From the NCBI GenBank assembly GCA_021778015.1, contig JAJYCX010000001.1, forward strand, positions 138,471-202,470: a stretch of DNA of 64,000 nucleotides, written 5' to 3'. A program made the translations under genes and the position numbers. The notes below the pieces were generated by a model. That model was not told where the DNA came from and ran no database searches. It worked only from the letters and a program-made list of their open reading frames with translations. Below, piece by piece: positions 19,771-40,272 of the stretch (positions within the stretch are counted from its first letter, which is position 1; each line of letters starts with the position of its first letter). The stretch is from Pseudomonadota bacterium. Lineage in GTDB: Bacteria; Pseudomonadota; Gammaproteobacteria; UBA1113.

Positions 19771-20245
19771 TATCGTGAGTGAAAATAAAAAACAAAATTC
19801 GACCATAGCTTTAAACAAGAAAGCGCTGCACGAATACCATATTGAAGAGCGTTTCGAAGCGGGTTTGGTGTTAGAAGGTTGGGAGGTCAAGAGTCTACGC
19901 GCGGGTAAAACACAACTCGTCGATAGCTATGTATTGCTCAAAAATGGCGAAGCCTGGCTGATAGGCACGCATATTACGCCTTTAAATACCACCTCAACCC
20001 ACGTCAAAGCCGTGCCCGATCGCACGCGCAAACTACTGATGAAACGCCAAGAATTGAATAAATTGATAGGCTATGTAGAGCGCCAAGGCTATACCCTCAT
20101 TCCCCTGGATCTACACTGGTACAAAAACCGCGTCAAGGTCAACATTGCACTGGCTAAAGGTAAAAAACAACACGACAAACGTGCCAGCGAACGCGACAAA
20201 GATTGGGCGCGCGATAAGGCACGGTTGATGAAGGTGAAGTTGTAG
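19757..20245 (+). CDS. smpB: SsrA-binding protein SmpB
   Basis: 162 aa (GTG start at 19757; GTG at 19775 is also possible). Collinear with E. coli Smp[36 protein letters not shown]...[14 protein letters not shown]...KGKKQHDKR. Confidence 0.93.
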
Positions 20246-20273
20246 GGTTTTATTTAGGCTAGAAGGAACTATT

Positions 20274-21857
20274 ATGGCCGTCACTCCGGAATTCTTAGCA
20301 GAACAGATTCAAAACCCAGAAGATACTAGTGTCATCTTTGATAAATACCTCTCCCGCAAAGAAGGAGAATCCGTAGAAGACTTCCAACAGCGCAAACAAT
20401 CCATTATTGAGCAAACAATGGTGCTTATAGATAAGAGTCCTCAAATATCCATTGTAGATATGAACATGACTCAGCAAAAAGTACCTGATATGAATATCAC
20501 AGAAGCGGAAAAACAAGCCATTCAAGCATACACCCGCCGCCTAGCAATAAAAGCACAGTTAGAATTAGAAGAAAAAGAAGGAATAGATATTAAGCATGAA
20601 AGCTTTCAGGAAATAAATAATGGCTGTCTTTTTACTATGAGTCAGATCAAATCAAAATATCCAGAAATTGAAGCGAAAATTAACAGAAATACAGTTGAAA
20701 TAATACGGCAAGATTTTGTACGCACATTACAAAAAGTGCCATTAGATATCTTACAACAATACGAGAACGTACGTAATGAGTATTTTGATCTCGCCGATAA
20801 CCCTCATAAAGCAATAGAGAGACAAAATGAACTCAAGGCCACTCAAAGAGAATTCGAAAAAACGTGGCCAGAAATACGATATAGATTATTGCTAAGCCAA
20901 GCAGGAAGCCAAACTTTTCAGCCTAAACATCCACCCTTTCTCTTTTCAACAGTAGAAAGTAATATCTGTGCTAACACAACCGAAGTATCTTCCTCAAGAA
21001 ATAATAGTTTTAATGCTGGTCTCAGCGCTATTGGGAATTTTTTCACCTCGGCGTCAAAAATCGCTAAACAAGTTTTGTCTAATCCCGCTCCTGCTGAAGG
21101 TCCGCAAACTCAATCTCATGTCAGCCCTCCCAATACATCTAGACAATTTTTCTCTAAGCCGGCTCCTGCTGATGGTCCGAAAATTCAGCCTCCTAACACA
21201 ACTAATTATTATGAAGAGGAGTATTCCTTCAAAATTTCATTATTAGGTGACCCCGGTGTAGGCACATCTCATTTACGGCATCGTTTCGCAAAAAATATAT
21301 ATTTCGAACCGAATATGTTATATCTCAATGATAGATATGTTTCTGAAATAAAGACTATCATCTTGAATAAATTTCGTATTAAATTACAGATACGAACTGC
21401 AGAAGCGTATTCCAAAACAGAGATTATCAACTGGGGAGAAGAACCCCTTAAATATCACACATGGCCAGCAAAAAAAGATGAACGGCGCATACAATTCAAC
21501 CACAGCAAAGAAGTAAGAGCGGACGCTGTCATTGTTGTTTTTGATATTACTGACTATAAAATCTTTGAAAATTTGAATAAATGGATAGATGAAACCGATC
21601 CACACTCCAATTCCACAGCGCGTACTTTGGCAGCTACTAAATGTGATATACCGGAAGCAGAATGGGCAGTAAAGAAAGAAGAAATCCGCGTTTTCGCCGA
21701 GGAAAATAACCTAAATGTCTTTTTCACGAGTGCTAAAGATAATTTTAATGTGGATGAATTATTTGAATATGTCGCAAACTCCATAATTCAAAAAAAGAAA
21801 CACAAAGAGAGCGAAGAAATCATACCGCTTGTATCTGGCTATTCTAAGCGCAGATAA
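20274..21857 (+). CDS. Two-part protein: ~320-aa unknown N-terminal region plus C-terminal Rab/Ras-like small-GTPase domain with degenerate G1 and G3 motifs
   Basis: 527 aa, starts 28 nt after the smpB stop. The C-terminal ~200 aa are collinear with Rab1. G1 is GDPGVGTS (21246-21269; canonical GDSGVGKS). G3 is IRTAEAY (21390-21410; canonical WDTAGQE). G4 is TKCD (21636-21647) and G5 is TSAK (21726-21737). Confidence 0.75.
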   Translation: MAVTPEFLAEQIQNPEDTSVIFDKYLSRKEGESVEDFQQRKQSIIEQTMVLIDKSPQISIVDMNMTQQKVPDMNITEAEKQAIQAYTRRLAIKAQLELEEKEGIDIKHESFQEINNGCLFTMSQIKSKYPEIEAKINRNTVEIIRQDFVRTLQKVPLDILQQYENVRNEYFDLADNPHKAIERQNELKATQREFEKTWPEIRYRLLLSQAGSQTFQPKHPPFLFSTVESNICANTTEVSSSRNNSFNAGLSAIGNFFTSASKIAKQVLSNPAPAEGPQTQSHVSPPNTSRQFFSKPAPADGPKIQPPNTTNYYEEEYSFKISLLGDPGVGTSHLRHRFAKNIYFEPNMLYLNDRYVSEIKTIILNKFRIKLQIRTAEAYSKTEIINWGEEPLKYHTWPAKKDERRIQFNHSKEVRADAVIVVFDITDYKIFENLNKWIDETDPHSNSTARTLAATKCDIPEAEWAVKKEEIRVFAEENNLNVFFTSAKDNFNVDELFEYVANSIIQKKKHKESEEIIPLVSGYSKRR

Positions 21858-38800: not shown

Positions 38801-40125
38801 CAGATGAAGATCCACGTGAGTTTCAAACCTTATATGAAACATGGAAACATATTGCAGTAAAACTATGTAGACATGGTGCTCGGCATAACCTTTATACCTG
38901 GCTTATTCTAAATGACAATTTAGAGGGTATTGAACTGTACCTAAATAAAGATACGATGAACAAACCTTGTGATGCTGAAGGAAATACTCCCCTACATTTT
39001 GCCGTTAAAACAGGCAATATAGAGCTAGTACGATTTTTAATAAAGAACAAAGCTTTTCTAGAGCCCATTAACTCAAAGCAAGAAACGCCTTTGCATCTAG
39101 CATGTGTGCAAGGTCATTTGGGCATTGTTAAATGCTTGCTTGAAGCTAAAGTAAGCCCAGATGGACCTAGGCGAGAATTAACCACCGATGAAAAGAAACA
39201 GCTTAGTGACTTAGTTAAAGTTTTTCCTGAAATGAACTCTTTCGTAAAAAAGAAACCATTGCGTTTAGAAACAGCAACGCCTTTGCAATGTGCCATTTCA
39301 AATAAACACCCCGCTATTGTGGAAATTTTGTGTCAGTATAAAGCGGATCTGGAAACAAAACCAAATGGTACTACCGCTCTACATTCAGCATTAATATTGG
39401 GAAGACAAGAGAGAGATACACAAGAAGACAGAATCAGCGTGCAGATGGTCGCTATTCTTTTGAAATATGGCGCGCAAGTATCCACACTCGATGATAAAGG
39501 GGAATTACCTTGGCTGACTGCCGTCCGTACTCGTAATATTAAAGCCATGATCTTACTTCTAGAGGCTTATGTGGCGCAATCACCCGAGCCTAGAGACGAT
39601 GCAACGCAAAAGGCAGTACTGTTTGATCTGTACAAAATAGAGGCAAAAGAACGTTTTTGCGACGAACTAGAACAATGGGCTCAAAGCTTTAGAGCGGCAT
39701 TGCATATATCGGAATCTGAATTAGCAGAATCGTCTATTGTGACAAAAGCGCCTCCTTTTGCATCAACGTTATCATCCTCTTCCTCGGCATCATCTTCGGC
39801 ATTGTCATCGTCGTCATCATTATCATCTTCTTGTTCGATGTTTCCTCCAGTCAAGAGTAATCCTAAACCATTCACGTCAGTAGGAGCCCAATTTGATAGA
39901 CATTTACAAGAACATTTTCAAGAAAGCGAAAACGCTCCCTCTGATTTAGATTCAGATTCAGACTATTTTTCTAACCATCATTATGAAGATTTATGCTATA
40001 CCCCTCCTGAAGAGAGAGAACCTTTTTATGTTATACCTTCAAGCCCGGAGGAACTAGAGGCAGATGACAAAGAAAAAGAAGAAGAAAGAGGATCTCCTTT
40101 TAGATTTGGGTATGGATCTAGTTAA
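35890..40125 (+). CDS. 1,411-aa protein: pentapeptide-like segment, coiled coils, canonical ankyrin repeats, poly-Ser tract, acidic C-terminus
   Basis: Start moved to ATG at 35890 (MKEEFILTEITL...), because the track start at 35767 overlaps the divergent giant gene. ANK repeats: GNTPLHFAVKTGNIELVRFLIKNKA, ETPLHLACVQGHLGIVKCLLEAK, TALHSALILG. Ser tract SSSSSASSSALSSSSSLSSS (~39760-39840). Tail reads PEELEADDKEKEEERGSPFRFGYGSS. Confidence 0.8.
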   Translation: MKEEFILTEITLDNIIGSPLFPDVLAQLTILNHYVAGGTLLNLNEKRTLYLMAVAWINSNLEKSDKEKISKILSLNNDEVEQLDEAAIKEVFPHLRNVLAKHTIIWHLLSDTEFHLEEEAEKLIYSGENYQKTIIALQQARQTFIKTRKKMVKDFVEDAAQPNKRAWVETYVATMEKHFALWRKSIIPLEISIHSQFFIDLTYLDLRKLDLRNIPLQHVNLSRSRLAGTWLTKTGISAVQLSQAKEFSLAADLSSELILAAQDEQYKDWTQRLEERTKIFHTFRARMDACAFNKNPDIAQDSNIFEFAVKHCERLNKLEADLNKHIDAQSLEKKLLNDLTAEQQSAIYLALAQSEKEESLLKSELTSLIYNARCDLCAAYFEEIEKNLLADNLYTALKLFNDLLVLMPTNKENDPLPQDLAIKIQALRERLLGLGLASIQNLLARSEKKKEIQEESTKTLKQIHSMLNHTLEWALPLDLEVAVNKVRRDLIRYRIELEIEQNNFLEAEKLIEKLLSEEEINTQAERCFNELKYYTIELTDEFLEKKVTLTAEQSKLGKIYISIQKNKDYLIFGMDGLIYRGALSGEQISAAKELSRLLRNPKHRKSILLKIAKESYIHLKFDLRLQIVEKLIQKSEIEQASGQLERASGELYGDDKKLKLANSRLEHAHSKLELARNRMHDIIVSAKMQKYTLDLREKSAFKNEAFWEGISVKGIRIYLAPKQVQALGERGQHYNETLFFAIENGNLEEIKYGIEYFSWRAYSRNESGCTSVVFACLHGHFDIARYVYENGGVVSTILTLGKTDVNPLDELIQDKYRKDKERYEPIIRWLIDLGLELEPKNALLLNDTELFKMSLAQLPDDDSKKEKMRELLQIAVEEGSDIIVGWMLENQKDCVTSFPKVESKTKFFSFLNEEVITVPEDLPLLHIACKKGRAVIVTALLKDPNTAGSTANKQSALLNLAQSFIEQYPHPDEDPREFQTLYETWKHIAVKLCRHGARHNLYTWLILNDNLEGIELYLNKDTMNKPCDAEGNTPLHFAVKTGNIELVRFLIKNKAFLEPINSKQETPLHLACVQGHLGIVKCLLEAKVSPDGPRRELTTDEKKQLSDLVKVFPEMNSFVKKKPLRLETATPLQCAISNKHPAIVEILCQYKADLETKPNGTTALHSALILGRQERDTQEDRISVQMVAILLKYGAQVSTLDDKGELPWLTAVRTRNIKAMILLLEAYVAQSPEPRDDATQKAVLFDLYKIEAKERFCDELEQWAQSFRAALHISESELAESSIVTKAPPFASTLSSSSSASSSALSSSSSLSSSCSMFPPVKSNPKPFTSVGAQFDRHLQEHFQESENAPSDLDSDSDYFSNHHYEDLCYTPPEEREPFYVIPSSPEELEADDKEKEEERGSPFRFGYGSS

Positions 40126-40167
40126 AAATCAATTTTTTTCTGTTTTTGCCAGATCTTCTCTGCTTAG

Positions 40168-40272
40168 CAAAGTGGTGCCCGATCGCATGCGCAAACTACT
40201 GATGAAAGGCCTAGGCTATACCCTCATCCCGCTGGATCTACACGGTACAAAAAGCGCGTCAAGATCAAAATT
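40168..40272 (+). pseudogene. Decayed fragment of the smpB 3' end (direct repeat of 20005-20145)
   Basis: CAAAGTGGTGCCCGATCGCATGCGCAAACTACTGATGAAA..GGCTATACCCTCATCCCGCTGGATCTACAC-GGTACAAAAAGCGCGTCAAGATCAA aligns to smpB at 20005-20145. It has a ~36-39-nt internal deletion, a 1-nt deletion after CTACAC and scattered substitutions. It translates as [22 protein letters not shown] and then shifts frame. Confidence 0.85.

Follow-up and report, generated by a model that had tools for sequence, protein, structure and literature searches.

Organization of the smpB locus

The stretch of DNA analysed here, 64 kb of contig JAJYCX010000001.1 (positions 138,471 to 202,470; hereafter the window), carries an intact smpB gene followed by a block of three genes. 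These encode a Ras/Rab-like GTPase (Ras527) and two ankyrin-repeat proteins (ANK4450 and ANK1452). About 20 kb downstream of smpB, between ANK1452 and a small convergent gene (o130), lies a second and decayed copy of the smpB 3' end, in direct orientation, and beyond o130 comes a further giant gene, p1608. The coordinates of all features are collected in Table 1. The window has an identical counterpart in a 155-kb metagenome contig, and its arrangement recurs in several samples. An earlier note on this DNA had read the repeat as the footprint of a mobile island that integrated site-specifically into smpB, supplied a replacement 3' end, displaced the original one and later lost its integrase. 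The comparisons reported below point instead to the joint of a head-to-tail duplication, most of whose second copy would since have been deleted, formed inside a locus in which the three genes already stood beside o130.

The distal smpB fragment

The repeat itself is genuine. Positions 40168–40272 match smpB at 20005–20145 with 93 of 104 aligned bases identical (89.4%, pairwise alignment), blastn within the window confirms the match with E-values of 1e-17 and 1e-9, and repeat finding places it in two families, D18 and D20, with two copies each in the 64 kb. The internal deletion that the earlier note had put at about 36–39 nt measures 36 nt, and the 1-nt deletion reported after CTACAC is present; with these two lesions and 11 substitutions, the distal copy was rightly described as a dead remnant. 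The 36-nt deletion is bounded exactly by direct repeats of CGCCAAG in smpB (20045–51 and 20081–87), an arrangement that fits slippage.

The start of the fragment was placed correctly, but its end was not, as the copy does not stop at 40272. After a deletion of 103 nt, equivalent to 20146–20248 (the C-terminal tail and stop codon of smpB), TTTTCTATTTAG (40273–40284) corresponds to TTTTATTTAG (20249–20258) in the spacer between smpB and Ras527. An insertion of 13–14 nt follows within the spacer copy, and then GGCTAGAAAGATCTAT (40298–40313) aligns with GGCTAGAAGGAACTAT (20257–20272). Searched for on both strands with up to 2 mismatches, this spacer 16-mer has two sites in the window, with 0.05 expected by chance; the copy is on the same strand and in the same order as the original, 26 nt past the smpB-like part. 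The distal copy thereby reaches ~40313, ending 3–6 nt short of the o130 stop codon. Taken together, the smpB-like part and the spacer matches mean that the repeated unit is the 3' part of smpB plus nearly the whole 28-nt spacer. At the left edge, the 3' flank of ANK1452 (40126–40167) is joined to smpB from nt 249 onwards, so that the topology is head-to-tail.

This is the only smpB fragment in the window, with no array of successive orphans, and no hairpins or terminators were found at it. Chance similarity and membership of a repeat family are both rejected by the presence of just two copies and by the strong E-values. A second smpB piece within 10 kb of the gene was found at 0 of 86 related loci, and a scan of JGI metagenomes with a 27-mer covering both the smpB copy and the fragment gave 0 matches. 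The smpB genes most similar to the fragment are those of its own clade, with 89% identity in the window and in the related loci L093 and L094, against 85% in L007 and L008. The fragment also shares the motif CTGGATC with its own sub-clade only. Judged by these similarities, it is a copy made within the lineage and not foreign DNA. The same four indels are found in the window, in L101 (a lineage 97% identical to the window, with the same order of ANK1452, fragment and o130) and in L100 (88% identical), and the fragment therefore goes back to a single event, with its decay, before those lineages split. Two independent contigs stop at the edges of the fragment: L091 ends at window position 40164 and L102 starts at 40298, suggesting branch points in the assembly graphs of the samples concerned.

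Gene content downstream of smpB in relatives

Relatives were recovered via SmpB and via the neighbouring proteins. Among them, L093 is 93.5% identical to the window in DNA over 14883–20249 and L007 about 91%, and L094, L008 and L009 are also related. In all five, the match with the window breaks off immediately behind the smpB stop codon (TAGGG) and resumes at 45727–46364. Ras527, ANK4450, ANK1452 and the fragment are all missing from these five loci, and equally from the same-species contigs L005 and L006, so that close relatives without the block are also without the fragment, in line with the earlier note. They are not empty sites, however. Another, anciently diverged cassette is present there, in which a convergent gene of a 265-aa family follows smpB (in L093, L094 and L008, with a relic in L010), and the p1608-like giant protein (in L007, L008, L009 and L093) is only 28–32% identical to p1608 at the amino acid level. 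No homology of o130 to the 265-aa-family gene after smpB in relatives was detectable. In L005 and L006, which are short contigs, smpB is 99.75–100% identical in DNA to that of the window and runs straight into the 265-aa-family gene. Among the contigs recovered, none has an intact smpB joined directly to the DNA now at 40.3 kb.

The view of the smpB 3' flank as a hot spot holds, with different content in each lineage. In distant relatives, smpB is followed by phoH-ybeY-corC, a PIN/antitoxin pair, an ATPase, or a helicase/Sel1 giant. Closer to the window, in L095 (94.5% DNA identity), smpB, spacer and Ras are joined as they are in the window, the Ras allele being 85% identical in amino acids. 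At 2470–3045 of L095 (sample ERZ27233573), where the window has a short palindromic element and ANK4450, there is an open reading frame (ORF) that probably encodes a transposase, to judge from its sequence; the contig ends inside it. Within a single sample, at least three gene contexts are found behind near-identical smpB genes, namely the 265-aa-family gene, Ras, and the fragment with o130 (from L005, L006, L095, L100 and L102, in samples ERZ27233573 and ERZ27237140). This suggests that haplotypes of the smpB locus co-exist within samples. Over all contigs, at least four different gene contents occur behind near-identical smpB genes, sometimes within one sample.

Relative age of the fragment and state of the working gene

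The locus L099 is much more distant, and bears on the order of events. Its gene order and orientation are as in the window, with an ANK1452-like gene (53% amino acid identity), a 216-aa ankyrin-repeat gene, an o130-like gene (69%) and p1608-like genes (52% and 27%). The ANK1452-like and o130-like genes are convergent neighbours, and no trace of smpB was found between them in L099. At the DNA level, the o130 genes of L099 and of the window, which are under selection, share only 74% identity, while the non-functional fragment is still 89% identical to smpB. Given the linkage of ANK1452 and o130 in L099 and a divergence of 10.6% in the fragment, the fragment would be much younger than the junction at which it lies, and therefore would not mark the event by which the three genes came to lie beside o130. 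The order in time, with the fragment formed after ANK1452 and o130 were linked, is an inference from these sequence comparisons.

The working 3' end of smpB shows no sign of an external origin. In the window gene, the 3' 241 nt are 97.1–97.5% identical to those of L093 and L094, and the 5' 218 nt only 92.7–94.0%; compared with L007 and L008, both halves are equally diverged. If an element had delivered the 3' end, as happened at icd in e14 lysogens (PMC13626634), it should be conspicuously different, and it is not. This is weak evidence, as a donor of the 3' end could have been a close relative.

A further contig, L100 (8.5 kb), resembles a site without the block. It carries a copy of a dispersed palindromic element, 35 nt of upstream sequence as in L007 and L094, and a clean 5' half of smpB, which is 96% identical to the window without indels and runs in register into the decayed 3' part with its four lesions. 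The spacer copy, o130 (98%) and p1608 (88%) follow. The predicted product is a truncated SmpB of 121 aa, a single occurrence among ~15 billion proteins. There are 3–4 private substitutions in the 248 nt of the 5' half, and 6 in the 104 nt of the 3' part in addition to the four indels; for substitutions alone, Fisher's test gives p = 0.07. From these counts the two halves seem to have different histories. L100 is either a deletion formed by recombination across the 33-nt identical core of gene and fragment, or an assembly join at that core. It is not a never-occupied site, because its lesions only make sense in a redundant copy.

Origin of the fragment

The explanation that we favour, with a probability of roughly 0.55, is that the fragment represents a head-to-tail duplication joint whose second copy was later deleted and decayed. 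Positions 40168–40316 would then be an orphaned and decayed copy of the stretch where the smpB 3' end meets the smpB-Ras spacer, joined to the 3' flank of ANK1452 by out-of-register recombination between two copies of the same locus. The event may have been a tandem duplication of ~20.16 kb (20005 to 40167) between sister chromosomes or, equivalently, a homologous copy, circularised or incoming, may have been re-inserted by ordinary recombination, whether homologous or illegitimate. Of the second copy, all but ~270 nt would subsequently have been lost, and this remainder decayed by four indels and ~10% substitution. This would have happened within a locus already ordered smpB-Ras-ANK4450-ANK1452-o130-p1608, and would not mark the arrival of the three genes. 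The latter may be regarded as one of at least two old and very divergent cassette types at a hypervariable effector locus, probably swapped between lineages by homologous recombination in two anchors, smpB on the left and the stretch at 45.7–46.4 kb on the right. Divergence that begins exactly after the smpB stop codon, similarity from 45727 onwards, and p1608-like proteins of 28–32% identity in between are the pattern expected of cassette exchange. A palindromic element native to the flanks but present inside the block, together with a composition near that of the flanks, points to long residence. We infer both the route by duplication and deletion and the exchange of cassettes from such patterns.

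Several points weigh against this explanation. Two successive events are required, first a duplication and later a large deletion, and the trace of the second copy amounts to only ~150 nt. Apart from the spacer, no recognisable second copy of the interior of the unit was found when 20246–40167 was compared with 40273–56000, and no Ras start codon can be demonstrated after the distal copy, as only 3 further bases match. The spacer match is also compatible with a Campbell/att model, since homology between element and target could include the spacer; it does not by itself speak against a displaced original end, and the argument rests on L099. The order in time, for its part, assumes that the ANK1452-o130 neighbourhood of L099 was inherited and that gene conversion did not rejuvenate the fragment. 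Finally, L100 has the topology of an empty site, and the history would be a different one if L100 were ancestral.

Site-specific integration of a mobile island carrying its own smpB 3' end (with the spacer), by which the original end was displaced to 40.17 kb, now appears improbable. A direct repeat of the 3' part of a target gene at both ends of a block that is missing from relatives is the classic signature of such an event, the fragment adjoins a convergent small gene just as smpB itself does in relatives, and the topology of L100 is as expected for an unoccupied site. In addition, smpB is a documented target: an active prophage of Acinetobacter baumannii is named 52.smpB (bioRxiv 10.64898/2026.02.16.706188), and the prophage Ph1-N is flanked by smpB (PMC7392541). 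However, there is no recombinase, and Ras527 starts 28 nt past the smpB stop codon, where islands commonly hold the integrase. A hidden integrase is rejected as well, as no domain was found between 19 and 56 kb and there is no space for a decayed remnant. In relatives, another cassette stands where the model would expect an empty site, and L100, which carries the inactivating lesions of the fragment, is not a never-occupied site. The claim of a replacement 3' end disagrees with a working end at least as native-like as the 5' half, and the claim that the arrival of the block created the repeat with the adjacency of ANK1452 and o130 in L099, which predates the fragment. No second case is seen among the 86 related loci. 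Thus, of five features by which the model could be tested in the sequence, the direct repeat at both ends is present; a recombinase, an unoccupied site, a divergent regenerated end and, going by the order in time set out above, an origin of repeat and distal junction in the same event are not, and the model is weakened. A search for SmpB in phage records gave nothing but host smpB of full length, located at the ends of prophage records, and was uninformative.

The same topology would result from linear DNA of a related strain (accD...smpB-Ras-ANK4450-ANK1452) that recombined with the resident chromosome upstream and was joined illegitimately at its far end near smpB nt 249, moving the resident smpB 3' end 20 kb downstream in a manner resembling the C-terminal displacement of Rhs and type VI secretion system (T6SS) loci. 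The locus is clearly exchanged, with at least three contexts behind identical or near-identical smpB genes in the same samples (L006, L095, L100); for orphaned 3' regions of other loci, a comparable mechanism has been put forward (PMC5361080); and CAAAG..GTG is shared at the joint. Yet this microhomology is insecure, because a TG/CC difference at the left joint can be read either way, and homology-facilitated illegitimate recombination is rare and mostly deletes rather than duplicates (PMC5361080). Since the resident needed to have the spacer and the ANK1452-o130 pair already, a large deletion of resident genes would still be required, and we consider this course of events unlikely. Even less probable is that a whole second smpB once lay beside o130, as in L100, and lost its 5' half, so that the left edge corresponding to 20005 would be the end-point of a later deletion. 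L100 does have ~35 nt of native-type upstream sequence, a full 5' half, the decayed 3' part and o130 in one contiguous piece. Its 5' half is undecayed in contrast to the 3' part, though, and the two seem to differ in history; the pattern fits recombination between gene and fragment across the 33-nt identical core, or an assembly join; and the 121-aa chimeric product comes from one contig among ~15 billion proteins. The duplication joint accordingly remains our preferred explanation.

Genes of the block and its surroundings

Table 1. Features at and around the smpB locus, in window coordinates
Feature	Position	Strand	Basis or remark
DUF4160 pseudogene, first half of a DUF4160-DUF2442 pair	19308-19541	+	Pfam 2.8e-16, six-frame translation
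DUF2442 gene, overlaps smpB start	19525-19770	+	Pfam 6e-19
smpB, intact, 162 aa	19757-20245	+	Pfam SmpB 3e-57, profile positions 1-142 of 143
Proximal repeat copy: smpB codons 83-stop and 28-nt smpB-Ras spacer	20005-20272	+	
Ras527, Ras/Rab-like GTPase, 527 aa	20274-21857	+	Pfam Ras 2.3e-19
MITE-like palindromic element, ~90-100 nt	21955-22044; in flanks 14742-14841 and 60370-60473		Repeat families D16 and D19
ANK4450, 4450 aa, ~75 repeats of 35-36 aa	22429-35781	-	Pfam Ank_2, 43 stretches, E = 0
ANK1452, 1411 aa in the gene calls of public contigs, 1452 aa from TTG at 35767	35890-40125	+	Pfam Ank families
Distal copy, part 1: smpB nt 249-389 minus 36 nt and 1 nt, 11 substitutions; dead fragment	40168-40272	+	
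Distal copy, part 2: decayed copy of the smpB-Ras spacer (20249-20272)	40273-40316	+	
o130, small coiled-coil gene, convergent on the fragment, old neighbour of ANK1452	40320-40712	-	
p1608, giant gene, older block syntenic with relatives	40920-45746	-	No Pfam match
Conserved right-hand anchor: intergenic stretch and 5' region of p167	45727-46364		84-88% DNA identity to L007, L008, L093 and L100
p2253 and p526, remainder of the effector-like block	46755-55366	-	

The gene content of the block is as the earlier note described it, the length of the second ankyrin-repeat protein depending on the start codon, and so is the lack of an integrase. The ORFs of 19.5–56.1 kb have no recombinase, transposase or excisionase domains in Pfam, and a six-frame Pfam scan of every intergenic gap in 19–56 kb yielded DUF4160 only. 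Non-coding DNA within the 20-kb block is limited to 570 nt and 194 nt. The block was said to be visibly more AT-rich than its flanks; its %G+C is indeed lower (39.8% at 20250–40167, against 41.8% in the left and 44.1% in the right flank), but the difference is weak, and the region at 40.3–55.4 kb is lower still (37.0%). A foreign origin is therefore not supported by composition, the block being only 2–4 percentage points below its flanks, with 40–55 kb deviating more.

The SmpB protein of the window is present in identical form on 7 metagenome contigs. No tmRNA or tRNA target was found near smpB, and the tRNA-Asn gene at 7612 is unrelated. Upstream, the DUF4160 pseudogene has a premature stop (TAA) at codon 21 and is 97% identical to an intact 78-aa gene of L093. 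The DUF4160-DUF2442 pair lies between accD and smpB in L008, L093, L095 and L006 and is missing from L007, L009, L010 and L094, and hence forms a second presence/absence polymorphism, on the opposite side of smpB from the effector block.

Ras527 is probably co-transcribed with smpB, judging by the short spacer, which includes the Ras ribosome-binding site and in which no terminator-like site was found. The best non-bacterial matches of Ras527 are animal Rab-12 proteins, with 26% identity. The GTPase family also occurs in the clade away from smpB: in L096, from the same metagenome-assembled genome as L009 (GCA_021156165.1), two adjacent Ras-family genes of 423 and 699 aa are located at 8544–12100, in an unrelated locus that runs from a Trp/Tyr permease gene to corC/priA. 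The 699-aa protein is 40% identical to Ras527.

The repeats of ANK4450 correspond to units of 105–108 nt in the DNA, and its acidic C-terminal tail is suggestive of an effector. In the core of the gene (27100–29000), ~17 consecutive 108-nt units are 76–84% identical to one another, and the local %G+C, at up to 50%, is well above that of the rest of the gene; this core looks like a set of recently expanded or homogenised repeats. In ANK1452, the ankyrin repeats are near the C-terminus.

The exact o130 product is encoded on 12 contigs, with the right-hand junction arranged identically in all, and homologues include P0037 (98%) and P0038 (70%). The only strong terminator-like hairpin in 39.8–41.0 kb (40850–40873, minus strand; 9 pairs, 6 of them GC, followed by a T run) sits between p1608 and o130, and o130 may be transcribed on its own. 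Further to the right, a p2253-like gene is syntenic in L007 and L093.

The palindromic element inside the block resembles a miniature inverted-repeat transposable element (MITE), with terminal inverted repeats TGTCATCCTCG...CGAGGATGACA and an inner hairpin GGGGATCCAG...CTGGATCCCC. Further copies are found in L100 (1–130, in window orientation) and in L098 (1879–1988), and contigs often break at this element. A second short dispersed repeat, with the core CGCTCCCTRACGGTCGCGGCTCGG, is present just downstream of genes at 10923–10960, 16347–16384, 56166–56227 and 62625–62686; it is placed elsewhere in L007, where 7536–7629 matches window positions 10870–10963. At 57877–60271, two adjacent genes on the minus strand (321 and 478 aa) share a stretch of 300 nt with 70% identity, and the longer one contains a 21/27-nt tandem array (58869–59237) that encodes an Ala/Thr/Gly-rich repeat.

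The host is like an uncultured member of the Legionellales within the gammaproteobacteria. The block has eukaryotic-type domains (ankyrin and Ras/Rab, by Pfam) of the kind seen in Legionellales effectors, and no secretion system genes were found in the window. Acidic C-terminal tails are suggestive of translocation by a type IV secretion system, and the ankyrin-repeat and Ras proteins are putative effectors.

Comparison with known systems

In Escherichia coli K-12, the prophage e14 has left a repeat of the 3' part of its target gene at icd/icdC, and chimeras of the two copies are known (PMC13626634). Other integrative elements that restore the end of a protein gene belong to the same kind, among them the smpB prophages of A. 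baumannii, whose names follow the Islander/TIGER convention. The smpB locus is similar in that the 3' part of a housekeeping gene occurs twice in direct orientation, ~15–20 kb apart, with the upstream copy working and the downstream copy dead. Recombination between the copies gives a chimeric gene, of which L100 is possibly an example here. It differs from e14 in having no integrase, excisionase, phage genes or genes of integrative and conjugative elements, the cargo consisting of three giant effector-like genes only, and also in a junction that is older than the fragment and a working 3' end that is not a divergent replacement. Remnants of tandem duplications are left when sister chromosomes recombine unequally and one copy is afterwards lost or deleted in part. 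They share with this locus the head-to-tail joint, a repeat distance equal to the length of the unit, and independence from dedicated enzymes; here, by contrast, ~150 nt of the second copy survive, and the end-points are not at insertion sequences, repetitive extragenic palindromes or rRNA repeats.

Rhs, CDI (contact-dependent growth inhibition) and T6SS effector-immunity loci display C-terminal displacement with orphan 3' fragments (PMC5361080). They too have a conserved upstream anchor, variable downstream cassettes, an orphan 3' piece left behind, and homologous exchange between strains. The anchor here is however a housekeeping gene, smpB, there is one orphan instead of an array, and the cargo comprises ankyrin-repeat and Ras proteins rather than toxin-immunity pairs. 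Legionella and its relatives have plasticity zones with eukaryote-like effectors, such as ankyrin-repeat proteins and Rab-like GTPases. The smpB locus resembles these zones in its ankyrin-repeat and small-GTPase proteins, acidic C-terminal tails, lower GC content at third codon positions and lineage-specific content, and differs from them in the absence of a secretion system from the window and in the exceptional size of its genes (4450, 2253 and 1608 aa).

A more far-reaching possibility, which we regard as doubtful, is that giant host-targeting genes in this clade form a cassette system that works without an integrase, with smpB as its fixed recombination anchor. If so, whole cassettes of 5–25 kb would be swapped, duplicated and deleted by homologous recombination via the smpB 3' end and the spacer. 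The orphan would actively serve as a substrate, L100 would be a deletion that arose naturally in this way, and populations could turn the block on and off, a broken smpB being the price.

The repeat is a pseudogene scar of a conventional kind; the mechanisms considered are conventional, and smpB was already known as a target. Where a fragment of a target gene lies beside an island, site-specific integration is readily regarded as proven, and the present case illustrates how a similar-looking repeat can form within a locus that already exists. The effector locus itself is unusually variable, and includes a 4450-aa ankyrin protein and a Rab-like GTPase. It illustrates well how hypervariable an effector region anchored on a housekeeping gene can be, and is useful for the study of effector turnover in intracellular bacteria.

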